Assembly: GCA_937858825.1 (NCBI GenBank)
Contig: CALMAI010000002.1
Location: 2,759-66,758 of the forward strand
Source of the DNA: an uncultured Candidatus Peregrinibacteria bacterium
GTDB lineage: Bacteria; Patescibacteriota; Gracilibacteria; UBA1369
Length of the DNA stretch: 64,000 nucleotides
Direction: 5' to 3'
Shown: positions 1 through 64,000 of the stretch, one piece after another
Numbering within the stretch: the stretch's first letter is position 1
How the letters are laid out: each line of letters starts with the position of its first letter
Notes under the pieces: model-generated
Told to the model about the DNA's origin: nothing
What the model saw: the letters and a program-made list of their open reading frames with translations, nothing else
Database searches by the model: none
Translations under genes and position numbers: made by a program

Positions 1-2
1 AA

Positions 3-326
3 CTTTCCGGTGGGCAGCGACAACGGGTGGCTATTGCCCGGGCAATTCTGAGTAATGCCAAAATTTTAATCCTTGATGAAGCGACCAGCAGCCTTGATAG
101 TGAGTCTGAGATGTTGATTCAAAAGGCTCTGGATAACCTGGTGAAAAATAAAACAACTATTGTTATCGCGCACAGGCTTTCGACTGTTATGTCGGCGGAT
201 CGGATTTTGGTTTTGCAGGACGGGAAAATTGTTGAGGATGGCCGGCATTCAGACCTGATCAACAAGAAGGGGAGTATGTATGGGAAGATGTGGGATCTGC
301 AGGTTGGCGGCTATATGCAGGACTAG
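3..326 (+). CDS. ABC exporter ATP-binding domain, C-terminal fragment (5' end outside window)
   Basis: Frame 3 reads [14 protein letters not shown] (ABC signature) from nt 3. It is followed by [12 protein letters not shown] (Walker B) and IAHRLST (H-loop). The tail is MsbA/multidrug-exporter-like. The stop TAG overlaps the stop of the convergent gene within a CTAG. Confidence 0.85.
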
Positions 327-787
327 TATTGAGCCTCCATCTGGTCGAGCATTTGTAATACCAGAGGGATCTGGTCTTGTTGGCCGTTGCGGGTCATTTC
401 ATCGATGATTTGCTGCCGTGATTCGCGAAGGATTTGTTGGGTCATTTCGTCGGAAACATTGGAATTTACGGTACTGTTCGTCACGCTATAAGTTGGCATT
501 TGGAAGCTGTTTTCGGTGGTTACCTCGAAATTACTTTCTGTCGTGATTTCTGGCTCTTCGATTATCGGTTCTTCCACAATAGATTCTTGGTCCTCCTGGT
601 CATAACGGCTTTCGTATGGGAATCCAAGCTCTCCAGAAACTTCAACCATGAAATCATCCCAAAAGTTTTTGATATGCGGCCAGGCACTAAAAATACCAAA
701 AGCAATGGCGCCAACAATAAGAATGAGGACAATACGTCCGCGATCGTTTTTTACGCCAGGTGGAGTGACGGGATTATATTGGTTCAT
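323..787 (-). CDS. hypothetical single-pass membrane protein
   Basis: 154-aa ORF with one hydrophobic helix ([18 protein letters not shown]) near the N-terminus, followed by an acidic, low-complexity tail. No recognisable domain. Confidence 0.45.
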
Positions 788-907
788 GGGATTTTAGAAA
801 TTTATTAATTTTATTGTATCATAAAAGGGATTTGTCATTCTTGCTTATTGACATAGGCTATAAATCTATTAAAATAAACATCCTTATATGTCACTAATTT
901 TTCATCA

Positions 908-1588
908 ATGCAGGGTTTAGTTGATGCTTCCGAACATCTAGGAGAAAAAGAGGAAAAGGAGTCTGTCCAGGAATCACATGAGGAGAATGTGGAAGAGGAA
1001 CTGGTGAATGAGAGAGATGAAATATCTGGACAGGTGGACAAGCTTTTTGTTCCTTCAAAAGAGGAACAGTTGGCCAAACTTATTGAAAAATTTTCTTCTG
1101 TTGGGCGATTTGCCCGATGGGCAAGGGATAAATACAGAGATTTGAGTGGGATTTCTTCGAAAATTTTAGACAATTTAGGCGAGTACTCTTTTGTTTTGAT
1201 CGACGATGATCTTCACAACCATGTCGCTTTTGTTCCGGGTCTTATTGCTCATAGCAGAGAGGCAACGGGGATTCTTTACAGGGGCAATATTCCTGTGGAA
1301 GAGCTTCTTCGGCAGCTTCAGGAGTTTCATCCGGACTTTGTGTTGGTCGATAATGATTTAAGAAGAAATATGAATGGTCCACAAATTGTGGAAGTTCTCA
1401 ATGATTTGTTACCAGAAACTCAATTTATTGGTTTCTCTGATAATCGTAGTCTAGCGGATCTGAAAGAACAGTTTCAAAAGGCTGGAGCCATTGGTTATGT
1501 TGAAAAGCGAAACCTTGGTATTGATGATGTTCAGATGACCATTGAGTCTTTGGCCGGGTTTATTGGTCGTCTGAAGAAGAAAGAGTAA
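908..1588 (+). CDS. stand-alone CheY-like receiver domain protein with acidic N-terminal extension
   Basis: All receiver landmarks are in the expected order: VLIDDD (beta1 acidic pair), DFVLVDNDL (phospho-acceptor Asp), FIGFSD (Ser/Thr), GYVEKR (Lys). No output domain is present. The first ~100 aa are Glu-rich. Confidence 0.6.
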   Translation: MQGLVDASEHLGEKEEKESVQESHEENVEEELVNERDEISGQVDKLFVPSKEEQLAKLIEKFSSVGRFARWARDKYRDLSGISSKILDNLGEYSFVLIDDDLHNHVAFVPGLIAHSREATGILYRGNIPVEELLRQLQEFHPDFVLVDNDLRRNMNGPQIVEVLNDLLPETQFIGFSDNRSLADLKEQFQKAGAIGYVEKRNLGIDDVQMTIESLAGFIGRLKKKE

Positions 1589-2783
1589 AAATCCGCTCGC
1601 GAATGGTTTCTTTAAGGGGTTCAAGGCCTTCTTTTTTGTATGTTGATACAAAGCACGGAGTGTACTTTTTGTATTTGCGGGCAAGGGCAGCTTGGTTTTT
1701 TGTGTGGGGAATATCGGTTTTATTGAAGACGTAAATGGATGGTTTGGTGAGTACGTCTATTTGTGCGAGAATTTCATTCACCGTTTTAATTTTATCGTTC
1801 ATTTTTGGATCAGAAATGTCGATGACATGGAGAAGAAGATCGGCTTCAATGGTTTCTTCCAGTGTGGATTGGAATGATTTAATGAGTTGTGGGGGCAGAT
1901 TTTGGATAAACCCGATGGTGTCAGAGATCAGTACTTCGCTTGGTGGTCTTTGGCCAAAGTTGGGTTGAAGAGGGGCATGCTGGCCGGCGCTTTTTTCCTG
2001 GAGTGTTTTTGGAGGAAAAACCAGTTTTCCTACGCGGGTGTCGAGCGTGGCAAAGAGCTTGTCGGCAGCCATGGCGCCTTTTCCGGTGAGGGTATTGAGA
2101 AGGCTGGTTTTTCCGGCATTGGTGTAGCCGATAATCCCAACGGTTTTCAGGTTTTTGCGTTTGCGGCTTTTTCTGTGCAGTTTGCGGACTTTACGGCACT
2201 TTTCCAGATCTTTTTTAATGCTCTGTTCCATCTTTTTTAAGTGACGGCGCATGAATTCGATATTGGTTTCTCCTCGTCCTCTGGTTCCGATTCCTCCAGC
2301 CTGACGTGAAAGTTCAATTCCCATACCAAAGATACGCGGCCCCATGTGTTTGATACTGGCTAACTCAATCTCCAGTTTGGCTTCTTTGGTGGATGCGTGT
2401 TTTTGGAAAATTTTGAGGATAAGATCAATGCGATCCCAAACCTTGAGATCATGTTTACGGATTTTTTCGCTTAGATTGTATGTCTGGCGAGGTTTGAGTT
2501 CGTTGTTGATGATGATAATGTTGGCCTTTTTGTCTTTCCCGGCGGTTTTATTTTCTTCAATGATTTCGTCGATTTTTCCGCTGCCAAGATAGGTGGCATA
2601 GTTGGGAATCAGTTTTTTCTGGATCTTTTTCACCAGAACGACACCACCATACGTCTTAATCAGGTTTTCTGCCTCTAATATACGATACTCTGCCTCTTCC
2701 TGTGAGAGGTTTGGTGGTATGCAATCAATGAGGATAGCTTTGAGCACGGTTTTTGATCGTTTTAAAAAAAAATCTGGCACCAT
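1560..2783 (-). CDS. hflX: GTPase HflX
   Basis: G1 motif GYTNAGKTSLLN, DTIGFIQNLPPQLIKSFQSTLEE (HflX-typical G3/switch region), NKTD (G4), and an N-terminal HflX domain. 29-nt convergent overlap with the receiver gene. Confidence 0.85.
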   Translation of the reverse strand: MVPDFFLKRSKTVLKAILIDCIPPNLSQEEAEYRILEAENLIKTYGGVVLVKKIQKKLIPNYATYLGSGKIDEIIEENKTAGKDKKANIIIINNELKPRQTYNLSEKIRKHDLKVWDRIDLILKIFQKHASTKEAKLEIELASIKHMGPRIFGMGIELSRQAGGIGTRGRGETNIEFMRRHLKKMEQSIKKDLEKCRKVRKLHRKSRKRKNLKTVGIIGYTNAGKTSLLNTLTGKGAMAADKLFATLDTRVGKLVFPPKTLQEKSAGQHAPLQPNFGQRPPSEVLISDTIGFIQNLPPQLIKSFQSTLEETIEADLLLHVIDISDPKMNDKIKTVNEILAQIDVLTKPSIYVFNKTDIPHTKNQAALARKYKKYTPCFVSTYKKEGLEPLKETIRERIFTLSSSDDQ

Positions 2784-2829
2784 GCTTGATGATGCCAGAT
2801 TTTTGATTCTTTATCGAGGCGAAAGCGTC

Positions 2830-3267
2830 TTATTTTTCGCAGAGTCCGCAGTGTCCTCCTACGTTCCCCATGAGAGCGAAGTTCATACCAAGGGCGAAAA
2901 GAGCCAGATCGGCATACATTCCAGCTATACCCTGAGAGAACCCATCGCCAAATCCTTTTGATTTTACGAGGATGATTGCTCCGAGCATGATGAGGGCAAT
3001 AATTCCACCACTCAAACGTGTGAGCATACCTTTTGCGTCTTGTGAGGCGATAAGTTTTCCAACAATGATACCAATACCGGCACCAAGCTCACCAAGAGCG
3101 ACGAGCCATGCAACGATTTCCGGGAGTCCCATTGATTGGGCAAATCCTGGAACAGTGAAGATGAAGATCTTCATGTATGAGGCATTGAGGAACACTATTG
3201 CCAGCACTAAACGCATGATCCATGATGATGCTTGAGCGCATTTGCACCCAGCTTGTGAATCTTTCAT
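2830..3267 (-). CDS. DoxX-family membrane protein
   Basis: 145 aa with four hydrophobic helices. DoxX-like pattern: LRLVLAIVFLNASYMKIF ... GLPEIVAWLVALGELGAGIGIIVG. Confidence 0.6.
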   Translation of the reverse strand: MKDSQAGCKCAQASSWIMRLVLAIVFLNASYMKIFIFTVPGFAQSMGLPEIVAWLVALGELGAGIGIIVGKLIASQDAKGMLTRLSGGIIALIMLGAIILVKSKGFGDGFSQGIAGMYADLALFALGMNFALMGNVGGHCGLCEK

Positions 3268-54221: not shown

Positions 54222-54797
54222 ATGTCTGTTTACCTCAGCCGCAGTCCTTATCTTGCATCGTACGGGCATGGATCCCGAAAAAAATCCCTCTTTAAGAAGC
54301 GTGCTACACGGCAGCGACGTTTGTGGGATAGTTCCTCTTTTTCTGGAATGAGTCGTGTGAAAAAGCGATCAACCGGTAATCTTTTGAGTGAGTTGAAGAC
54401 GCAAACCAAGGTTGGAGCGGCAGCGACGACCAGTGTTGTGCGGAAAAGTGCTGAAACGGTAACAGGAATGGCTCATGCCATGAAGAATGTTGGGAGTAAG
54501 AAGGTGAAGTTTGAGATTGGACCGCGATTTGTGATTATTGGTCTTCTGGGAATGGTTGCATTCCTGAGTTTTGCGTATCTGGCGCATTTTCATACTGTTG
54601 CGACAAAGGGATATGAACTCCGGCGTTTGGAGGCCGATCGGCAGCAGCTTTTGAATCAGTATGAGATTAAGAATATGCGTCTGGCAGAGATGCAGTCGCT
54701 TACAACAATTGTTGAGAGTGAAAAGGCGAACTCTATGCGCCGGGCGAATCAGATTGAGTTTGTTCGTGGAAATTCCGCTCTTGCTTCAAACCCGTAA
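54222..54797 (+). CDS. FtsL-like single-pass membrane protein (tentative)
   Basis: Position directly after rsmH. One TM helix (FVIIGLLGMVAFLSFAYLAHF) followed by a coiled coil (ELRRLEADRQQLLNQYEIKNMRLAEMQ). Confidence 0.45.
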   Translation: MSVYLSRSPYLASYGHGSRKKSLFKKRATRQRRLWDSSSFSGMSRVKKRSTGNLLSELKTQTKVGAAATTSVVRKSAETVTGMAHAMKNVGSKKVKFEIGPRFVIIGLLGMVAFLSFAYLAHFHTVATKGYELRRLEADRQQLLNQYEIKNMRLAEMQSLTTIVESEKANSMRRANQIEFVRGNSALASNP

Positions 54798-54825: not shown

Positions 54826-54865
54826 GAAAAGAACCCATCATGATGATGGGCTCTTTTTGTTTTTA
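54826..54865. terminator. bidirectional rho-independent terminator
   Basis: aaagaacccatca / tgatgggctcttt stem with one mismatch, followed by ttttgttttt. Lies between convergent genes. Confidence 0.5.
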
Positions 54866-54871
54866 AAGGTT

Positions 54872-57800
54872 CTAGGTTGCCGGAGTTCTGGTGAGGTCGA
54901 AGGTGAGAGTGACCTGGTATGATCCGGCCAGCTGGAATGCAGGGATCTGGAGGTAGTATTGGATGTTTTGTTTGAACTGTCCGCTACGACCAACTTCTGC
55001 AATGGTTACTGGTGCGAGCATGATGTCGATAATAGAATCGAGGTTGTCACCGTTGGTGGTGAATGTTGATGCTGCGTCGAGGTTGCCGGCGGTGTTATTG
55101 TTTTGTGGCGCAGTGATGTTGGTGACACCAGCATAGCCGCTGTCGTACTCAACTCCACCAGTCTGGGTTCCACCGGTGTTTGATGCCTGTGTTACGGCAT
55201 AGAATCCTGTGAGCGGAATCTGTTCTGAGGTTACAGAGTCTTCGAACGCGCTTGCCTGAAGCTGAAGGGTGAATCCTCCTGCGTTTTCTGTGTCGGTGAC
55301 TACAGCAACGTCGTTAACGTTGAGAGTGTATGGTGTTGCGGAGCCGATACTAAAGATCTCTTGTGAGCTTGTTGCACTGGTGATTGCCGGGAAGGCAAAG
55401 TCGTCTGGGGCGGTGATGGTCAGAACACCTGGATTTGGTTCGATTTCGATCTGGAGACACTGTTGGTTTGGTCCGACAATACAGGTGAACTCTACATCGG
55501 CTGTTCCAATAAGGATTGGTGCTCCGGTTACATCGTTTCCGGTAAAGGTAACGTTGTCGACCGTTGTGGATCGGACATCGAAGGTTGCTTCACCATTTAC
55601 GTCAGTGACGTCGGTTGGGTATGGTGGTGGAGTAGCGTAGCCAACGTATTCGATCTGGCTTACGGCCTGGTCATCAGAGAGTTCTACTGTTCGTCCTGGG
55701 ACAGGGTTGTTGAAGGCGTCGCGGAGAGTAATCGTAATGGTGCTGGTCTGTACTCCATCGGCTACAACTGATGTTGGGTTGGCAACAATGGTTGAGTTTC
55801 CTGCGTCAACGCTTCCTGCTGTGAAGGTTACTTGTGGTTGCTGTGTAACCCCTGGAGTGACAGGTCCTGTTAAAGGATTGTACAGACGGGTGGCTTCGGA
55901 GTCTCCAAAGATACTGTTATCGTACGTTGAGATTTCGTCCGGTTCAGAGCTGGCGGTGCTGTCGTACATTCCGATGCGGGCTGTTTGTCCATCGTTTGAG
56001 AAGTAGTGGAATTCAACAGTGTTGTTTTGGTAAAGGATGATTTCAAAGAAGATTGGATTGCTGGTTCCGGCGTCTTGAGCGTCCCAAAGGAATCGGACAC
56101 TGTTATTGTCGCTCGCAACCTCCCGGTAAATTCCACCGCTGGTAGTGTCGAGGTCCCGGAAGAATCCGGCAATGGCATTACTGAGGGATCCGGAAGATGG
56201 ACATCCGGTTGAAGCAAGGCTAATGAATCCGTTACTACAAACGTAGATATTGGTTGAAGCCGGCACGTTGGTTCCAAAGAGTTCAAAGTCGAATGGAAGG
56301 GTTGTTGTGGCTTCAACATCATCTCCCTGGCTTCCGGCAATAAGGCTTGAGGCGGTTCCCGGGTAGTCGTTTACAAATGTTTGAGAGGCCAACTCTTCGT
56401 AAGAAGTTTTTTCGTAATAAAGACTATTCCGATTTGGAGTGAAAGTTGCGGGTTGTGCTGCTGTGCTGGTGACGTCGAAGTCGGCTACACCGCTGCTGTT
56501 GGTGTTTTCAGTGGCAGAAACAGGGGAGTAGGTTGTAGCGGTTCCATCGTCGGTGACAGTGACTGATTGTCCGGTGATGAATCGTCCGAGTGAGTCCACA
56601 ATGGTTGCGGTAAGAGTGCTTGGAGTTGATCCGTCGGCGGCAACCGTTCCCGGCGCGCTGGTAAAGGTTGAGTCGTCCAGGTCAGGATAGTCAGCAATGA
56701 ATTCAACGCTTGCTGTTTGTGTCATTGCCGCAGGAATGCTGGTGATTGTAGCAGTATAGGTATTGCTTCCAGGAGTTGTGATGTCTTCTGAGTGGATGGC
56801 AAAACATGCTTCACCATTTAAGTTGGTGGTTCCCTTAGTTATAACACCAACATCGGACTGGTCGCAGTTAACAGCACTAATGGTTGTTGTTCCTGATCCA
56901 CCAGTTTGAGCAACAGTTACGACTTCACCTTCAACAGGTGATCCTCCTCCATCGTTTACGGTTGCGGTAAGGATGTTGGTTGTTACTCCATTGGCGATAG
57001 TAGTAGCTGAAGATGGAACAAAGGTTGAGGTTGTTTCGTCTGGATCACCAACATAGGTGAATCCGTTTGTTAATGTGTCTGATTGAGTGTCTGGGTTGGT
57101 GACGGTTACATCTACGGCTCCAAGAGCGTGGGCTGGGGTTTCACATGTGAGGGTGGTGCTGTTGATGTAGACGATATTGTTACAGCTGATTCCATCAAAG
57201 GTGATTTGTGGTGGGTTGGTTGTTTGAGCTCCAAGAGATGTTGATGCCTGGTTTCCAGAAAGGGCATACTTGGTATCCAAATACTCTTCTACTGCTTCCC
57301 GGTCGGTTGTAGAGAGGTTTCCGCTGAAAATAATGGTTTCAGCAAGGTCCATGTTAACGTATGGACTGTTGTCCATTTCTCGTCCGATTTCAATTTCGGT
57401 TGTACCGGTGTTGATTGATGTTGGGCTATGGGTGCTTTGGAGGCTTCCATTAATGTATTGTTCAAGTGTGTTGCTTCCGTTTCCGGCAAAGACTGATGTT
57501 TGGATGTTCCATCCGGTTCCGTTGGCAAAGAGTCCGCTATCATAGTCGGTTCCCCATCCCTGAACAAAGAAGTTTCCATTAAATCCTACAACGTTTCCGT
57601 AGACTCCATTTGATGCGGTTGTACCGTAGGAGACACCTCCCCATCCGACACTTTGGTAGTCTACAACATTGAAGAATGTTCTGGTTGCGGCGCCTGTTGG
57701 GAGTCCGGTGAATCCGGTTCGACCCATAGACTGGTTGACTCCGTTAAAGCTTACGGCTGGGAGACCATTTACGATGTTGGTGATCCAGGTTGGATTAAGA

Positions 57801-60800
57801 TTGTTGGTTGTTACGTCGTTGTTGTTGCTTGATTGGTCGGTCCAGCTGGTTACCGGGTCGTTGTTGGTTGTGGCGTCGGTTCCTTCGTTGGCTTTGAGCC
57901 AGAATTCTACATTACTGCTGAGTACTGGGAATACTGCTGCAAGGCTGCTTTCTGAAGACCGGCTACTGTCGCCGTAGTTGATGATGATATCTTTTCCGGC
58001 GATAGGAATGTTTGGAACAAGCGCCCAAATAATGGTGTCGTTCGAGTTGCAGTCTTCAACCCAGTAGCTAAGTGGGGTAATTCCATTTGAATCGTAGACG
58101 CGGATGTCGCCACAATCACTCTTCATTTCTGTTGCTGTAATAAGCGATGCGGTATCCAATATGATTGGGACGGCATAGTTGGTGAGGATTCCACCGGTTG
58201 GATTTGTAATTGAGGCTGTCTGGTTATATCCACCATCTATAAAGTTGGATCCGAGAATGAGTACTGGAGTTCCTCCAGCAGCTGGGCCATTGTCTGGGTT
58301 GACGCTGCTTACTACTGGTGGCGCGTTGGTGACAGTGAAGTAGTCTGTGAGGGTGTCGGTACCTCCGTCCGGGTTGGTTACAACAACATTCCATGCACCA
58401 ACAGCGGCTCCGGTGATTGGAAGATCACAGGTGAACTGTGTGGTGTTCACGAATGCGGTGTTTGTACAGTTGATGTCTGTTTGTCCGTTTCTTGTGAGTT
58501 TTCCGGTAATTCCAGAAAGGAAATCGGTACCGTTGAGCTGAATGCCTACAAGGGTTGCGTTATTTTCACCAGTTGTTGGGTTGGTTGATGTGAGTGTTGG
58601 TGGCGGATTATAGGTGAATCCGTTTGTTAGTGTGTCAGATTGTGTGTCTGGGTTGGTGAGGACAACATCTACGGCTCCAAGAGCATGAGCTGGAGTGTCA
58701 CAGGTTACTTCTGTGCTATCAACGAATGTGATGTTGCTACAAGATGTTCCGTCGAATGTGACATCAAGGAGATGCGATTCCGCGTTTGCAGATGAGGTTG
58801 GGTCCGGGTTTGAGTAGTTTCGGACCATGAGTGAGTTTGGATCTGAGTTCAGCGATTCTCCAAGGCCGTTATAGAGGTCCTGAACCTCTGCCTGGGTGAG
58901 AGCTCGGTTTGAAACGAATACTTCATCAAATGAACCAGTAAAGTAGTCTGTGGCGGTTCCGCCATCCCAGTCTTGTCCAACAGTGAATCGTCCATTGGTG
59001 TCTGGTCTTTCTGTGGTTGTAAAGGTTGCTGCCGGATTTCCGTTGAGATAGAGAACACCGTTATTTGATGAGTCGATGGTAACAACAACATGATTCCATT
59101 GTCCCAGGGTTGCTTCTACGTCTGCATATTGGTGTGCTGCAATAACATCGTCGTAGTATGAGAATTTGTTTGTTTCAGGATTGTTCCACCATACCTGGTT
59201 TTCATTTGCTCCTGCGCTGGTGTGGAATCCAAATGCAAATGAACTGGTTGAGATGTCTGGATTGATCCATGCTCCAAAGGTTACTTCATTGGTTGTCATG
59301 TCTGGAGGGATGCTGTCCGCGCGCATGTAATCGCCGGAACCGTCGTAGTGGACTGCCGTTCCTTCATATCCACTTACCCAGGTTGGATTTCCAAAGAATG
59401 TTCCGTCGCTATCGTTTCCAGAGAAGTCACAAACATCTTCTCCGCCAGTACAGGTGTTGTCTGAACCTTCATTTGAAGGGAAGTGAGCAACGATGCTTGA
59501 ACTGTCGATTTCACGAACAAAGGTGTTGGCACTGCTGCTATCTGAAATGAGCGTACTGTCACCATATGTTGCATAAATGGTTTTTGCAGGTGATCCGTTT
59601 GGAATAGATGGGATCTTTACCCAGAGCAATGTGGCAGCATTGTCACATGGGCCTTCAATGTAATAGTCGAGGTTGTTGTTGAGGTCTGAATCTACTAGGC
59701 GGAGGTCGCTACAGTCTGCGTTCATGTTTCCAGCTGCAATTGGGGTGGCAGTGTCGAGGGTGAGTTGAACCTGATAGTCGGTAAGGGCTCCTCCGGTATT
59801 GGTGATTTCGTATGGTACGCCATAGGTGCTGTAGAAGTTGGTTCCTCCAATGCTGACATTGGTTCCGCCAGAAGTTGGGCCGTTGTCTGGGGTAACACTT
59901 ACAACGTCTGGCGCAGGCCGTGTAATAGTGAAGTAGTCTACGAGTGTGCCCGTTTGTGTGTCTGGGTTTTCAATAACAACATTCCAATCTCCTGTTTCTG
60001 CTCCGGTGAGTGGCAGATCGCAGGTGAACTGTGTTGAATTGATGAATGCGGTATTTGTACAGTTGATGTCGGTTTCGTTATCTCTTGTGAGTCGACCAGT
60101 GATTCCAGAGATAAAGTCGGTACCATTGAACTGTACACCTACAAGGGTTGCATTATTTTCACCAGTTGTAGGGTTGGTTGATGTGAGGGTTGGTGGGGGA
60201 TTATAGGTGAATCCACTTGAGAGAGTGTCTTGTTGTGCGTCTGGATTGGTGACTACAACATCGACTGCGCCAGCGGCATGGGCTGAGGTGTCACAGGTGA
60301 GGGTGGTCGCGTTGACGTAAGCAGTATTGCTACATAGTGTTCCATCAAATTCGACAACAGTAAAATTGTTGGTTTCTGTTCCAACCGAGGTGGTTGGTTC
60401 ATTGCCGGTAATAGCGTATTTACTATCAATGTAGCGTTCGATTTCTGGTTGTTCTACTGAGTTGATTGCGTCGTTGAATACAATCAATTCGGCAATGTTT
60501 CCGTCAAAATTGGTTTGGCTTGTAGCATCTCCAATCCAGATGGTGGCACTTGCTGTGTCTTCGGTGTTTCCATCTGTCTGGAATGATGTTGTTGAGTCGA
60601 GCAATGCCCCATTACTGTAGAGAGAGGCGTTGCTGTTAGCGAAGTTAAGGATTGCAGTTTCAAAAGTATAGATTCCAGTGTTTACTGTTCCTCCGGAAAC
60701 GGCCTGATATGCATCGGCATCAAGTCGGCGTCCACCCATTTCAAAGATGGTACCGTTTCGGGTGAGTCCGGCTCGTGCTGCTGTTGCACTTGCTGTTGAA

Positions 60801-63800
60801 GCGAGGAAAATGTATTCGCTGGCACCAGTTGTATCTGATTGTGCTACAGATATAACAGAGGTTCCTGTTACATTGCGAAGGAGGTTAAGATTACTAAACT
60901 GGAAGTAGTCTTCAACTCCATCAAAGACAAGTGTTGGAAGTCCATTAAGGCTGGCTGGAAGGTATCCTGCTGCGTTGGCAGGGATTGCGGTAACATTGTT
61001 TCCATTACCAGATTGATCGGAAAGGGTGGTTACTGAACCATAAGTACAGTCGCCACTACACATTTCGATATTATTTATTTGTGTTCCGGTGTCATAAAGG
61101 CTTGCAAGACCATAGAGAGTAGCGGTAGGCGCTACAGAGCTGACATAGAACTCTTCACCATTTTTTCGGTAAACAACGACACCATCTTTTGATTCAACAC
61201 TTAAGACGTCTGTATCGGTGTAGCTGCCAAAAGATCCTCTGCTCGCTCCATTTTCATAAACGTTGAGTGTTCCGTCGTTAGCATAGAGAGCAAAGTCGAT
61301 ATAAATATAGTTTCCGACGTTTGCCGCATCCACATCCAGTCCAACCATTGCCCGTTGAGTTCCAGATGTTGGAGCCTGGAAGGTTATGATTCCGTCTCCG
61401 GTGAAGGATTCGTTGGTTGAAAATCCTCCAGACCATCCTGTGGCGCCGGTTTTTGTGACATTGTTTCCGTTTGTAGTAACTCCCACTGTCTGGTTGAATG
61501 TGACGGCTGATGATTCAGAAGCAACGATGCTGTTAGCTTTTAACCAGGCTACATTGTTTGCACTGGCAAGGCTTGGGAATGTGCCTGCGAGGTTACTGTT
61601 GGAAGTGAGTGTTGGGGTTCCGTAGGTTACAAAAATGTCTTTGGTTCCATTTGGAACAGAAGGAACAACTGCCCAAATCACTGTGTGGTCGCTGTCACAA
61701 GGTCCATCAATCCAGTAGGTGAGATCGGAAAGATCTGAATCTTTCACACGGATGTCGCTACAATCGGCATTCATGTGGGACGCGTCGATAGCAGATTTTG
61801 TGTCGAGCTGGAAGTTGATCTGATGGTTTGTGAGGGCGCTACCGCCATTGTTGATGGTGACGATGTTTTTATATCCATCGTTTACAAAGTTGGTTCCTGT
61901 AATTGTTACTGCGGTTCCACCGGAGACTGGTCCGTTGTCGGGATTTACATTGGTAATGTTTGGTGGAGCCTGATTGACAGTGAATCCATCAACGAGGATG
62001 TCGGTAAGGGTGTCTGGATTTTCAACAACAACATCCCATGTTCCGAGTGCTGCGCCGCTGATATCAAGATCACAGGTAAACTGTGTGCTGTTTATAAAGT
62101 TGACACTGGTACAGACAATGTCTGATTCTCCGGTCTTTTGGAGTCGACCGGTGATACCACTTACAAAGTCGGTACCGTTGAAGGTGACATTGTAAATTTG
62201 ATTGTTGATTCCGTTGTCAGGTGTGATGCTCGTGACATCTGGTGGTATCCGGTATTCGTAAAGGCTTGGGTCAAGGTCACCAATGGTGCTGCTTCCGCCA
62301 AGGGTTCCGTCAAAGTTTCCGATTTCAACGTCTACAAATCCAACAGGGTGGGCAGGGGTGTCTGCAGTTACTGTTGTATTGTTTACGAATGTGATGTTTG
62401 TTGCTGGCAGGGCATCAAGTTCTACATAGAGGTTGGCACCTGTTTCTGCCTGAACGGATGGAATTGGTTCGTATGAAACAACATTGCGAATGAATATCCA
62501 ATCCCATTCTGCATCGTAGCTTTGAGTGTAGACGCCATTGTCATACCGTTCGCCAAGTGCGATTTTTTCGTTGATAGCTCCGTTATCATTGTCGGTTACA
62601 GAGTGAATTGATGCTCCGGTGCTAAAGTTTTCGATTTCGTACGTTGCGGATGTTCCGCTCATAGTCATGCGGTAGCGGAGATCTGTAGCGAGAGGGATTA
62701 TATCGCTTCCAATACTAATGTAGCTGGAATCTTCTCTATAGTAGTCGGTTCCTGGGTGATTGAGGTAACCTGCACCGTTACTGGTGCTTTCAAAGAATCC
62801 AAGTGGGGTGTATCCGTTTCCTGGCAGACTGTTAGTGATATGTTTTGCTTCAAGAATGTAATCTCCGGTGTAGGCGTTAATTGAAGCGAGACGGTTGTTG
62901 TTGGTTCCTGTACTGGTAAGGACACCATTTGCGACTGCAAACTGGCCGGTGTCCGCTTCCCATTTCGTTGTGTCTACAGATCCACCACTAAAGTCGTCGC
63001 AGAATGTGAAGACATCTTCACAACTTGCAGAACTTGAAAGGTTGAGATTTCCATAAGTCATGTAGATGCTGAGGAATCCACTTGCAGGAATGGACGGAAT
63101 TTTTGTCCAGATTCGAGTATTTGCTGTGTTACAGGTTCCTTCTTCCACCCAGTAAGGGAGGTTGCTGATCTGGTTGTTGTCTTTAATGCGGATGTCACCA
63201 CAGTCGCTGCGCATTTTTCCTGCTGCAATTTCTGTTGCAGTATCGAAAGTGAACGAAGCTTCATAGTTGGTGAGTGCTGAGGCTGAAGGTGTGTTGTCGA
63301 AAGAGATTTCCCGTCGGTAGTAGTTTGGTCCAAAGTTGACTCCGCTGAGTGTGACATTGGTTCCACCGGTTGTTGGTCCAGCATTTGGGTTAATGCTTAC
63401 CAAGCTTGGATCGGCAAAAATGTAAGCTCCTGAAAGTACATTTGAGACTTGTCCTGTTGGGTTGATAGCTTGCACGTCGATTGTTCCTGTCGGGTGAGCA
63501 GCGGTGGTTGCAACGATTTCGGTGTCGCTATTCCAAATGACCTGGTCAGCATCGTATCCATCAAAGGTAACATTGACCGGGTCAATGAATCCGGTACCGG
63601 TAATGGTGACTTCTGTTCCTCCGGCAGTTGACCCTTGAGTTACATCAAGGGATATAATGGTTGGAGCTGGAGGATTAACGGTAAATGGATCGCTTGAAGC
63701 GAAGGTGAGTGTTGGAACGGATGATGTGTCGGTTGCGCGGAGGACAACGTCAGTCTCTGCTGTGTCGTAGGTAACACCGGAAATGGTTGCCTGGCTTTGT

Positions 63801-64000
63801 CCGGAAAGGATTGTTCCGTTAAGGTTTCCTCCAAGATTTCCAGTTCCTGTTTCCAGGCTGAGGGTAATACTACGGTTTGCGGGAACGGTAACAGGGTTGT
63901 TATTAAGGTCAATTGACTGAACAACAACATCGAATGGATCAAACTGGGTTGGATCTGATCCTCCATTCACTTCTTCTGGATGAACACGTTCCCGTGTGTC
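54872..64000 (-). CDS. giant surface protein, 5'-partial (>3,040 aa): four IPT/TIG-like + DUF2341-like + LamG/ConA-like modules, Big_1-like Ig domains, NIDO-like domain, WxL-like C-terminus
   Basis: The frame stays open from 63970 to the window edge. The codons at 63971-64000 read DTRERVHPEE, and the listed start is GTG. There are four copies of the DUF2341-like block (C[GS]D[IL]R[ILV].D...YW[IV][ED]...[IL]W..[IV]P.[IV]P...Y[GA]), near 63.2, 61.75, 59.7 and 58.1 kb. Multiple IPT-like units are present (P.I.S..P..GP..GGT.V.I.G.NF). Big_1-like units are present (e.g. STIVANPTSVVADGVQTSTITITLRD). The C-terminus ...AGSYQVTLTFDLTRTP resembles a WxL-domain end. Confidence 0.85.
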   Translation of the reverse strand, partial: DTRERVHPEEVNGGSDPTQFDPFDVVVQSIDLNNNPVTVPANRSITLSLETGTGNLGGNLNGTILSGQSQATISGVTYDTAETDVVLRATDTSSVPTLTFASSDPFTVNPPAPTIISLDVTQGSTAGGTEVTITGTGFIDPVNVTFDGYDADQVIWNSDTEIVATTAAHPTGTIDVQAINPTGQVSNVLSGAYIFADPSLVSINPNAGPTTGGTNVTLSGVNFGPNYYRREISFDNTPSASALTNYEASFTFDTATEIAAGKMRSDCGDIRIKDNNQISNLPYWVEEGTCNTANTRIWTKIPSIPASGFLSIYMTYGNLNLSSSASCEDVFTFCDDFSGGSVDTTKWEADTGQFAVANGVLTSTGTNNNRLASINAYTGDYILEAKHITNSLPGNGYTPLGFFESTSNGAGYLNHPGTDYYREDSSYISIGSDIIPLATDLRYRMTMSGTSATYEIENFSTGASIHSVTDNDNGAINEKIALGERYDNGVYTQSYDAEWDWIFIRNVVSYEPIPSVQAETGANLYVELDALPATNITFVNNTTVTADTPAHPVGFVDVEIGNFDGTLGGSSTIGDLDPSLYEYRIPPDVTSITPDNGINNQIYNVTFNGTDFVSGITGRLQKTGESDIVCTSVNFINSTQFTCDLDISGAALGTWDVVVENPDTLTDILVDGFTVNQAPPNITNVNPDNGPVSGGTAVTITGTNFVNDGYKNIVTINNGGSALTNHQINFQLDTKSAIDASHMNADCSDIRVKDSDLSDLTYWIDGPCDSDHTVIWAVVPSVPNGTKDIFVTYGTPTLTSNSNLAGTFPSLASANNVAWLKANSIVASESSAVTFNQTVGVTTNGNNVTKTGATGWSGGFSTNESFTGDGIITFQAPTSGTQRAMVGLDVDAANVGNYIYIDFALYANDGTLNVYENGASRGSFGSYTDTDVLSVESKDGVVVYRKNGEEFYVSSVAPTATLYGLASLYDTGTQINNIEMCSGDCTYGSVTTLSDQSGNGNNVTAIPANAAGYLPASLNGLPTLVFDGVEDYFQFSNLNLLRNVTGTSVISVAQSDTTGASEYIFLASTASATAARAGLTRNGTIFEMGGRRLDADAYQAVSGGTVNTGIYTFETAILNFANSNASLYSNGALLDSTTSFQTDGNTEDTASATIWIGDATSQTNFDGNIAELIVFNDAINSVEQPEIERYIDSKYAITGNEPTTSVGTETNNFTVVEFDGTLCSNTAYVNATTLTCDTSAHAAGAVDVVVTNPDAQQDTLSSGFTYNPPPTLTSTNPTTGENNATLVGVQFNGTDFISGITGRLTRDNETDINCTNTAFINSTQFTCDLPLTGAETGDWNVVIENPDTQTGTLVDYFTITRPAPDVVSVTPDNGPTSGGTNVSIGGTNFYSTYGVPYEITNTGGALTDYQVQLTLDTATPIAAGNMNADCSDLRLVDSDLNNNLDYYIEGPCDNAATLLWVKIPSIPNGSPAKTIYATYGDSTLISDSSSANTFVREIDSSSIVAHFPSNEGSDNTCTGGEDVCDFSGNDSDGTFFGNPTWVSGYEGTAVHYDGSGDYMRADSIPPDMTTNEVTFGAWINPDISTSSFAFGFHTSAGANENQVWWNNPETNKFSYYDDVIAAHQYADVEATLGQWNHVVVTIDSSNNGVLYLNGNPAATFTTTERPDTNGRFTVGQDWDGGTATDYFTGSFDEVFVSNRALTQAEVQDLYNGLGESLNSDPNSLMVRNYSNPDPTSSANAESHLLDVTFDGTSCSNITFVDSTEVTCDTPAHALGAVDVVLTNPDTQSDTLTNGFTYNPPPTLTSTNPTTGENNATLVGIQLNGTDFLSGITGKLTRNGQTDINCTNTAFVNTTQFTCDLPITGAAVGAWNVVVTNPDGGTDTLTDYFTVTNAPPVVSSVNPDNGPAAGGTPVLILGSNFIDGGYNQTASITNPTGGILTNYAVPIILDTASLITATEMKSDCGDIRVYDSNGITPLSYWVEDCNSNDTIIWALVPNIPIAGKDIIINYGDSSRSSESSLAAVFPVLSSNVEFWLKANEGTDATTNNDPVTSWTDQSSNNNDVTTNNLNPTWITNIVNGLPAVSFNGVNQSMGRTGFTGLPTGAATRTFFNVVDYQSVGWGGVSYGTTASNGVYGNVVGFNGNFFVQGWGTDYDSGLFANGTGWNIQTSVFAGNGSNTLEQYINGSLQSTHSPTSINTGTTEIEIGREMDNSPYVNMDLAETIIFSGNLSTTDREAVEEYLDTKYALSGNQASTSLGAQTTNPPQITFDGISCNNIVYINSTTLTCETPAHALGAVDVTVTNPDTQSDTLTNGFTYVGDPDETTSTFVPSSATTIANGVTTNILTATVNDGGGSPVEGEVVTVAQTGGSGTTTISAVNCDQSDVGVITKGTTNLNGEACFAIHSEDITTPGSNTYTATITSIPAAMTQTASVEFIADYPDLDDSTFTSAPGTVAADGSTPSTLTATIVDSLGRFITGQSVTVTDDGTATTYSPVSATENTNSSGVADFDVTSTAAQPATFTPNRNSLYYEKTSYEELASQTFVNDYPGTASSLIAGSQGDDVEATTTLPFDFELFGTNVPASTNIYVCSNGFISLASTGCPSSGSLSNAIAGFFRDLDTTSGGIYREVASDNNSVRFLWDAQDAGTSNPIFFEIILYQNNTVEFHYFSNDGQTARIGMYDSTASSEPDEISTYDNSIFGDSEATRLYNPLTGPVTPGVTQQPQVTFTAGSVDAGNSTIVANPTSVVADGVQTSTITITLRDAFNNPVPGRTVELSDDQAVSQIEYVGYATPPPYPTDVTDVNGEATFDVRSTTVDNVTFTGNDVTGAPILIGTADVEFTCIVGPNQQCLQIEIEPNPGVLTITAPDDFAFPAITSATSSQEIFSIGSATPYTLNVNDVAVVTDTENAGGFTLQLQASAFEDSVTSEQIPLTGFYAVTQASNTGGTQTGGVEYDSGYAGVTNITAPQNNNTAGNLDAASTFTTNGDNLDSIIDIMLAPVTIAEVGRSGQFKQNIQYYLQIPAFQLAGSYQVTLTFDLTRTPAT

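Follow-up and report, generated by a model that had tools for sequence, protein, structure and literature searches.

The window analysed here, 64,000 nucleotides (nt) from an uncultured Candidatus Peregrinibacteria bacterium (GenBank assembly GCA_937858825.1), corresponds to positions 2759-66758 of contig C2 (CALMAI010000002.1) in a 1.32-Mb genome of 46 contigs. Its last part is taken up by much of the gene for a giant, predicted surface protein in which one cassette of domains recurs four times. Within the window the gene reads as a single minus-strand frame (54872-64000) of 3,042 amino acids (aa) plus a TAG stop codon (54872-54874), open at its 5′ end. The frame stays open up to the end of C2, amounting to 4,798 aa, and its first 341 codons are found on a second contig of the same genome, C15:4046-5068, in a frame that leaves that contig's end. 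We recovered this start with the guidance of a 94%-identical NCBI protein, annotated as 'MAG: DUF2341 domain-containing protein [Candidatus Gracilibacteria bacterium]' and encoded in GCA_041389165.1, a metagenome-assembled genome (MAG). Both C15 and C2 are colinear with one contig of that assembly, and the gap between them is about 18 nt (about 6 codons) inside a region of Kelch repeats. Put together from the two contigs, the complete protein has about 5,145 aa and its gene about 15.4 kb.

An earlier, sequence-only reading of the window had placed the N-terminus outside it and had proposed extending the contig to recover both the N-terminus and a signal peptide. Both expectations hold: C15 encodes a Sec type I signal peptide, MKPIIGISALALISIVSLFSFSTSYA followed by ADP, which is also present in the 94%-identical NCBI protein and is the sole hydrophobic segment of the giant. 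The start codon is TTG, and a promoter-like site, TTGCGT-N17-TACAAT, lies about 70 nt upstream of it. TGA ends 64 of 542 long open reading frames (ORFs) and so serves as a stop, which means that the standard code holds here in spite of the Gracilibacteria label; the alternative Gracilibacteria code 25 was rejected on this count and because table 11 leaves the giant frame open.

The sequence-only reading had also allowed that repeats might have collapsed or mis-assembled the gene. The longest and best DNA repeats within it are 63-76% identical and thus too diverged to collapse an assembly. Further, the gene aligns end to end with that of the independently assembled GCA_041389165.1 (92.3% nt identity over 14,403 columns, with all indels compensated bar one), and this colinearity over 14.4 kb argues that the giant gene is not an artefact.

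Domain searches recover the repeated plan directly. In the window protein, Pfam finds four copies of DUF2341 (PF10102; 211.6 bits, E = 1.5e-63, with single copies at 49-86 bits in a whole-genome scan against a gathering score of 23.4 bits), eight stretches of IPT/TIG (PF01833; 155.2 bits against a gathering score of 20.9), two of Laminin_G_3 and three of Big_1/Invasin_D3. Each cassette opens with a single TIG domain or a pair of them, continues with a lead strand of TIG-like sequence (PxxxSxxPxxGPxxGGT) merging into DUF2341, and closes with a ConA-like head; this order recurs four times within one ORF. Pfam and our own hidden Markov model (HMM) of the TIG domain thus agree with the four cycles of IPT, DUF2341 and lectin-like domains that had been seen by eye, and the C[GS]D[IL]R motifs, at residues 267, 747, 1430 and 1963 (window 63.20, 61.76, 59.71 and 58.11 kb), fall together with the Pfam hits where the DUF2341-like blocks had been placed, at about 63.2, 61.75, 59.7 and 58.1 kb. 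Given these scores and motif positions, the core observation is real and far beyond chance. Residue numbers here and below are those of the window protein (1-3,042) unless the complete protein (about 5,145 aa) is named, and all features of the gene lie on the minus strand.

The DUF2341 domains, each taken with its lead strand, span residues 198-350 in module 1 (window 62951..63409; CGDIR at 267, Pfam DUF2341 at 266-349), 680-830 in module 2 (61511..61963; CSDIR at 747), 1364-1515 in module 3 (59456..59911; CSDLR at 1430) and 1895-2045 in module 4 (57866..58318; CGDIR at 1963), the last three being placed by Pfam and the motif. All four carry K-M-R-x-D-C-x-D-I-R and Y-W-[IV]-E motifs. We aligned 39 archaeal and bacterial sequences, homologues of the unit formed by DUF2341 and head 1; M48, D51, G53, D54 and W83 are invariant, and C52, R49, R56, Y68, W69 and E71 are conserved in at least 90%. 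A second Cys follows the first by 21-24 residues in all four copies (about 24 in module 1), and this paired, conserved Cys fits a predicted extracellular disulfide. The Pfam model, of 84 positions, begins at C-x-D-x-R, and the sandwich predicted by AlphaFold2 (AF2) is confident from about 40 residues earlier. On this prediction, the Pfam DUF2341 model is just the C-terminal two-thirds of a larger β-sandwich that contains the putative disulfide. The unit of DUF2341 and a head-1-type domain also makes up whole proteins of 320-500 aa by itself, most of them from DPANN archaea, at 31-36% identity over 83-93% of the unit.

The spacers between these units form the stalk. Module 1 has a single IPT/TIG domain (113-190; window 63431..63664), with the best Pfam TIG stretch at 113-186 and support from our own HMM, which alone delimits the remaining ones: a short TIG-a (505-572) and TIG-b (587-671) in module 2 (61988..62488), TIG-a (1195-1262) and TIG-b (1270-1355) in module 3 (59936..60418), TIG-a (1727-1793) and TIG-b (1801-1886) in module 4 (58343..58822), and a closing TIG-a-type domain after the fourth head (2245-2312; 57065..57268). 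This HMM marks twelve TIG-type segments in total, four of which are only lead strands fused into DUF2341. The IPT units had been described as nearly identical, which proved wrong: the stalk segments of modules 2-4 share 50-70% aa identity in chunked BLAST comparisons, in line with the divergence of the DNA repeats given above, and the stalk is diverged.

The heads are recognisable to different degrees. Laminin_G_3 (PF13385, gathering 27.6 bits) detects head 3 (about 1520-1725; window 58826..59443) over the full model with 88.1 bits and head 2b (about 1040-1200; 60401..60883) with 33 bits. Heads 1 (about 350-520; 62441..62953), 2a (about 832-1005; 60986..61507) and 4 (about 2050-2245; 57266..57853) have no Pfam match, and phmmer searches with them against PDB sequences gave nothing usable. 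Domain searches therefore back the earlier assignments for DUF2341, TIG and heads 2b and 3, and do not return LamG for the other three heads; with the homology and fold evidence given below, the DUF2341 and LamG assignments survive the refutation that the sequence-only reading had set for them. Head 4 is assigned to the LamG type by its homology to head 2b (phmmer E = 9e-27, 82 bits), and an orthologous head is found in P0002, a more distant protein at the same locus (347 bits). The heads do differ, as had been claimed of the lectin-like regions: in sequence, head 1 shows no relation to head 3, and neither of them to any other head. Since heads 2b and 4 are homologous, the heads are not four unrelated ones. 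Likewise, the AE.I.F...E.Y[LI]..KY ending that had been attributed to every module closes only heads 2b and 4; head 3 has an ordinary Laminin_G_3 ending, and head 1 ends in '...AEWDWIFIRNVVSYEP'.

Structure prediction extends the assignments to heads 1 and 2a, whose likeness to known domains is one of fold only. The AF2 model of DUF2341 with head 1 has a predicted local distance difference test score (pLDDT) of 76, above 90 throughout DUF2341, and a predicted template-modelling score (pTM) of 0.78. In Foldseek searches against the PDB, head 1 matches GH16, legume lectins, VIP36/ERGIC-53, CBM66 and a GH43 β-sandwich (E = 5e-5 to 3e-3, probability 1.0), as well as the CBM2 of a Lactobacillus phage Dit. 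Going by this model, head 1 is ConA-like at the level of the fold. The GH16 ExDxxE motif is absent from head 1 and from the entire protein.

Head 2a gives a better model (pLDDT 88, pTM 0.83), with TRIM67, TRIM9, SPRY7 and Ash2L, all of the B30.2/SPRY fold, as its best Foldseek matches (template-modelling score, TM, 0.6-0.68; E about 1e-6), followed by CBM66 and a levanase sandwich. No SPRY model (PF00622 and relatives) matches it at E ≤ 1, the sole hint being Neuralized at E = 0.1; because the predicted likeness is one of fold with no match in sequence, we call the domain SPRY-like rather than a SPRY member. Its best viral match (TM 0.71, E = 1e-11) is a structural protein of a Cellulophaga phage, probably the same protein as the sole PDB sequence match of a profile of the head-2a family. 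Aligning head 2, 'VAWLKANS ... [2a] ... VTTLSDQSGNGNN', with head 4, 'VEFWLKANEG...VTSWTDQSSNNND', suggests that the SPRY-like domain was inserted after the first strand of the LamG domain of head 2. The lectin-like region previously drawn in module 2 as one is thus two: the LamG head 2b and an additional SPRY-like domain, about 170 aa long. Repeats of the head-2a type, a widespread family seen in giant proteins and one for which Pfam has no model, form tandem arrays of 6-24 copies in 42 of 243 proteins examined. Among the best 150 matches to a module 2 query, which are dominated by TIG-rich proteins as the query ended in a TIG, four are colinear with module 2 in its whole nested form.

The four cassettes sit within a longer frame. 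From its N-terminus, the complete protein comprises the Sec signal, about 2,100 aa of Kelch repeats, an Ig-like domain, the four cassettes, the closing TIG, two Big_1 domains, an unnamed domain, a third Big_1 and a WxL-like C-terminal domain. The Kelch region runs from residue 27 to about 2100 of the complete protein and contains dozens of Kelch-type blades, broken at about 1573-1657 (C2:68097-68351; L001:1339-1593, minus) by a domain of about 85 aa that matches Pfam DUF3383 / E217_gp31_N with 40.8 bits against a cut-off of 34.9. This family is the N-terminal domain of a phage tail sheath (phage E217 gp31). The DUF3383-like insert is kept in all four positional orthologues, with two copies in one of them (P0006). 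In the window, the end of the Kelch region and the Ig-like domain (about 15-110; 63665..64000) are kept in all positional orthologues, as is the unnamed domain of about 170 aa (about 2560-2730; 55811..56323). The latter looked NIDO-like by eye (…LPFDFELFGTN…IYVCSNGFISL…), an assignment that we dropped as NIDO gave no Pfam match at E ≤ 1. Pfam places the two Big_1/invasin-D3-type Ig domains that follow the closing TIG at 56321..57064 and the third Big_1/Invasin_D3 at residues 2736-2830 (55511..55795); the WxL-like domain (2837-3037; 54890..55492) is delimited by an HMM of its paralogues in the genome.

The giant gene stands in a fixed gene order: SLH/CAP, LytR, S11 peptidase, glycosyltransferase family 4 (GT4), FecR/DUF5667, ECF sigma factor, fructose-bisphosphatase (FBPase), giant, small ORF, RsmH, Sua5 and GAPDH. 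At the same locus of other genomes we find three more distant proteins, P0002 (4,377 aa), P0003 (3,837 aa) and P0006 (4,185 aa). The four orthologues share a common frame (Kelch, DUF3383-like, Ig, then after the middle part two Big_1, the unnamed domain, Big_1 and WxL-like) and differ in that middle part. Four cassettes are present in this genome, with head 1, SPRY-like plus LamG, LamG_3 and LamG; three in P0002, with head 1, a head-4 type and a LamG_3; two in P0003; and in P0006 a single cassette with DUF2341, alongside two LamG_3 domains that stand without it. Cassette number (1-4) and head type therefore vary at one fixed locus.

Two neighbours of the giant recur with it. A small ORF (window 54222-54797, plus strand), of 191 aa here and 124-191 aa in relatives and with no Pfam match, is convergent with the giant and lies directly downstream of it in all four orthologous loci; a terminator-like hairpin (54834-54850) separates the two genes. 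Just upstream, past FBPase, C15:1-4045 (colinear with L003:5964-10000) carries divergent genes for an ECF sigma factor and a FecR/DUF5667 anti-sigma-like protein. This pair, found in all orthologous loci, is a possible regulator of the giant locus.

Outside the orthologue group, other giants carry units of TIG, DUF2341 and head, at least six of them in P0166, for example. DUF2341 occurs in 13 of 40 related genomes, among them in an open frame of 11,167 aa with 15 DUF2341 (G010:C1:258572-285082) and one of 8,157 aa with 7 (G019:C1:1245355-1254780). The genomes with these two frames belong to the same family as this one and hold far larger arrays of the same cassette. Our genome has a second giant open frame (C19:40978-57507; 5,509 aa), with no DUF2341 by tblastn and without a clear WxL-like end.

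Divergence along the gene was examined in one pair of strains, this gene and that of GCA_041389165.1. The ratio of nonsynonymous to synonymous substitution rates (dN/dS) is 0.11 over the whole gene, 0.03-0.27 in every region with measurable synonymous divergence (dS) and 0.07-0.15 in all heads; the value of 0.57 for the second DUF2341 comes with a dS of only 0.012 and carries no weight. The giant gene is kept by purifying selection, and diversifying selection in the heads was rejected on these values. Identity is uneven. A tract of 2.3 kb covering module 2 (residues about 560-1330; window 59990-62330), with both ends in TIG domains, is 98-99.7% identical with a dS of 0.05, between flanks that are 87-94% identical. 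A 300-nt patch of head 3 (residues 1570-1670; window 58990-59290) is 78% identical with a dS of 0.8-1.2 and a dN/dS of about 0.15, which makes head 3 the most diverged part between the two strains; with so high a dS, this patch points to an imported divergent segment rather than to positive selection. Such mosaic divergence fits what recombination between diverged alleles would give, in this one pairwise comparison.

The C-terminal domain connects the giant with other exported proteins. In a tblastn search with its last 215 aa, paralogues appear on contigs C32 and C4, where they form the C-termini of secreted proteins 205-766 aa long; besides the giant, at least nine secreted proteins encoded in the genome carry the domain. 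An HMM built from nine genomic paralogues, with the giant excluded, matches its C-terminus with 134 bits (E = 4e-40). One paralogue passes the Pfam WxL model PF13731 (31.7 bits against a cut-off of 25), and two retain GWTL or GWIV at the first WxL site. On C32, a 13-kb same-strand stretch (C32:5870-19295; L004:870-14295) encodes at least seven secreted proteins with a WxL-like C-terminus, including the one above the Pfam WxL cut-off. Interspersed among these are four WxLIP_PGBD (PF06030) proteins, two above the cut-off of that family and two just below it; two of the WxLIP-like proteins end in LysM and at least one in a hydrophobic membrane-anchor segment. From its gene content, this cluster looks like a Csc/WxL-type surface-complex locus in a genome from the Candidate Phyla Radiation (CPR). 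On C4 (C4:24576-28842; L005:3576-7842, minus), two paralogues of about 708 aa lie in tandem, each with a signal peptide and a WxL-like C-terminus. The giant itself has no C-terminal LPXTG. That it is a surface protein, as first proposed, is strengthened by the Sec signal peptide, the WxL-like C-terminal domain and the paired conserved Cys of each DUF2341.

As a whole, these features are best explained if the giant is a wall-attached, lectin-type adhesin of an ultra-small CPR bacterium of the Gracilibacteria class, a reading that we consider probable. Judged by its domains, the protein is probably secreted and located at the cell wall, and the four cassettes are likely to serve in gripping another cell; the word adhesin itself derives from the types of domain present. 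The giant would leave the cell by Sec export, after which its WxL-like C-terminus would hold it non-covalently on peptidoglycan, on membrane-anchored WxLIP/LysM proteins or on both. The Ig and TIG domains would act as spacers, and the ConA-type heads and distal Kelch propellers would bind to glycans or to proteins on a second cell that serves this reduced-genome organism as host or partner. Within an otherwise conserved core-locus gene under purifying selection, the cassette array would then be the variable part; between the two strains compared, exactly one cassette carries what would be a recent recombination tract, both of its ends falling in TIG spacers.

The sequence-only reading had pictured an adhesin with four different heads on a conserved stalk, likewise from its types of domain. 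The analysis supports that picture in part; the stalk is diverged and two of the heads are homologous. The interpretation seems a reasonable one, covering only the four cassettes, which make up about 40% of the roughly 5,145 aa, with the distal 2,100 aa or so given over to Kelch propellers.

Several points weigh against an adhesin of this kind. At the proposed anchor, the last 212 aa of the giant lack any Pfam WxL match, which one of ten family members reaches; Phe takes the place of Trp in each of its two WxL motifs (GGFTLQLQ, TLTFDL); and the giant gene is not adjacent to the WxLIP genes, which lie on a separate contig. Because of the missing Pfam match and the two Phe, we term the domain WxL-like and only infer its docking to the wall or to WxLIP proteins. 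At the heads, the model of head 1 is moderate (pLDDT 40-85; Foldseek TM 0.3-0.5), and the heads and the Kelch propellers need not bind glycans, since folds of the ConA-like, SPRY and Kelch kinds are also found in enzymes and in contacts between proteins. In the 39-sequence alignment, the residues most conserved within the cassette all lie in DUF2341 and none in the heads, so that DUF2341 rather than the heads may be the constant functional site. Finally, in the relative with 92% nt identity, a net 1-nt deletion (CC to C before AAAA, equivalent to window 62141; L003:18169) splits the ORF into 2,738 and 2,158 aa; given the dN/dS of 0.11, this could be either a sequencing error or a real inactivation that is very recent or polymorphic.

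A more ambitious version of the adhesin reading can be built on the variation at the locus. Units of TIG, DUF2341 and head would be gained, lost and swapped between strains by recombination in the TIG spacers, re-tuning the grip on partner glycans much as phages swap receptor-binding modules; the mount of the giant would be a WxL-WxLIP system in a CPR form, with a Pam-related strand-exchange fibre as one possibility; and the invariant DUF2341 would position, or bind together with, each variable head. Taken jointly, these proposals are tentative, and we think it unlikely that all of them hold.

The main alternative concerns how the giant is mounted, on a WxL/WxLIP complex or Pam-like fibre as opposed to the wall. 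The giant could be the tip or cargo of a fibre or complex built by the WxL-like and WxLIP-like proteins, a CPR counterpart of Csc/WxL that possibly works by donor-strand exchange of the Pam type; its adhesive role would be the same and only its mounting would differ. The sharing of the C-terminal domain by at least nine other secreted proteins speaks for such an assembly, as does the C32 cluster, in which paralogues alternate with four WxLIP_PGBD proteins that include at least one membrane-anchor end and two LysM ends; Pam pili, for comparison, employ chaperones anchored in the membrane together with Ig-like pilins that exchange strands (PMC13278184). However, no NCBIfam (release 20) or Pfam match ties ten proteins with the WxL-like domain to Pam components, the NCBIfam scan giving neither a Pam nor a WxL name in a comparison made through family models and not Pam sequences; the giant gene lies outside the C32 cluster; and the homologues reported for Pam come mainly from Saccharimonadia and Microgenomatia rather than from this class (PMC13278184). 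We judge this alternative improbable as it stands.

Somewhat less probable again is that the giant serves the envelope of its own cells rather than host recognition, whether as a fibrous coat, as a binder of matrix or extracellular polymeric substances, or as a link between cells of its own population. Its place in a conserved core locus, beside housekeeping genes and the envelope genes for LytR, S11 peptidase, GT4 and SLH/CAP, would suit a structural protein, and so would purifying selection throughout with none of a diversifying kind in the heads. By contrast, variable cassette number and head type together with recombination mosaics are more typical of partner-recognition proteins, and the heads resemble phage receptor-binding and lectin modules.

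A PilY1-like tip adhesin of type IV pili is very improbable: DUF2341 proteins do occur in archaeal type IV pilus loci and have been likened to PilY1 (PMC4858521), but the signal peptide here is Sec type I and not prepilin-type (class III), the C-terminal domain is WxL-like, no pilus genes flank any of the four orthologous loci, and Pfam finds neither a PilY1 propeller nor a vWA domain. Equally hard to credit is an array of polysaccharide-degrading enzymes, or an assembly artefact made from repeats; the GH16 and GH43 matches of head 1 are offset by the lack of an ExDxxE motif and of any catalytic Pfam family in the protein and by the non-catalytic nature of the matched GH43 and levanase β-sandwiches, and a repetitive gene broken over two contigs is offset by repeats of at most 76% identity, by a second assembly with the same 15.4-kb gene and by a break of only about 18 nt with both sides colinear with the relative.

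CPR bacteria, or Patescibacteria, are thought to live attached to other cells, and the molecules that make this contact are mostly unknown. The giant locus offers a concrete candidate for such a molecule, with a full domain map, an export signal, a likely wall-docking domain and four separable cassettes, and orthologues that differ in cassette content amount to a natural experiment on specificity. The pairing of a DUF2341 sandwich with a ConA-type head travels as one unit from DPANN archaea to CPR giants. What is new here, the variation of cassettes at a syntenic locus, a SPRY-like repeat family so far without a model and the true extent of DUF2341, is modest, and these findings do not overturn current views.

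The adhesin reading matches what has been proposed for giant proteins of the CPR. Giant Patescibacteria proteins (more than 4,000 aa) with DUF2341, FhaB or both, and a suggested role in adhesion, are described in the Patescibacterium danicum paper (PMC11809585), and host attachment in a related CPR predator has been attributed to giant surface proteins (PMC8080830). As giants with DUF2341 are thus already in the literature, this gene adds to a known kind. It shares with those of PMC11809585 the phylum-level group, a length above 4,000 aa, one or multiple DUF2341, the proposed adhesion or interaction with a host and a suggested reshuffling of domains by recombination. It differs in lacking FhaB and in having a lineage-specific frame of N-terminal Kelch and C-terminal Big_1 and WxL-like domains; and its cassettes are tracked at one syntenic locus across orthologues, unlike those in that paper.

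The WxL/Csc clusters of Lactobacillales, Enterococcus, Listeria and Bacillus (PF13731, PF06030; WxLIP = DUF916/DUF3324) likewise combine a large secreted protein bearing a C-terminal WxL-type domain, small secreted paralogues with the same domain, WxLIP_PGBD genes beside them and no sortase motif. Here, by contrast, the giant is too diverged for the Pfam model, has Phe for Trp twice and is encoded away from the cluster; two of the WxLIP-like proteins carry LysM, peptidoglycan binding is a prediction, and the organism is a CPR bacterium rather than a Firmicute.

For the cassette itself, the closest comparison is with free-standing proteins of DPANN archaea and methanogens that pair DUF2341 with a ConA-like domain (MJ1470 type; arCOG03508, PMC4858521), to which it shows 31-36% identity (in 320-500-aa proteins of Aenigmatarchaeota and Nanoarchaeia) with the same motifs. 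Those proteins are short, consist of a single unit and in some cases lie in pilus loci, whereas here the unit makes up one cassette out of four, all joined by TIG spacers, in a giant exported through Sec. Finally, phage receptor-binding and tail-fibre proteins and adhesins of the RTX and Bap types resemble the giant in their beads of Ig spacers, in their ConA/LamG/SPRY-like or CBM-like modules and in the exchange of modules by recombination. The giant differs from all of these as a chromosomal core-locus gene, free of phage context, RTX repeats, a type I secretion signal or an outer-membrane anchor.

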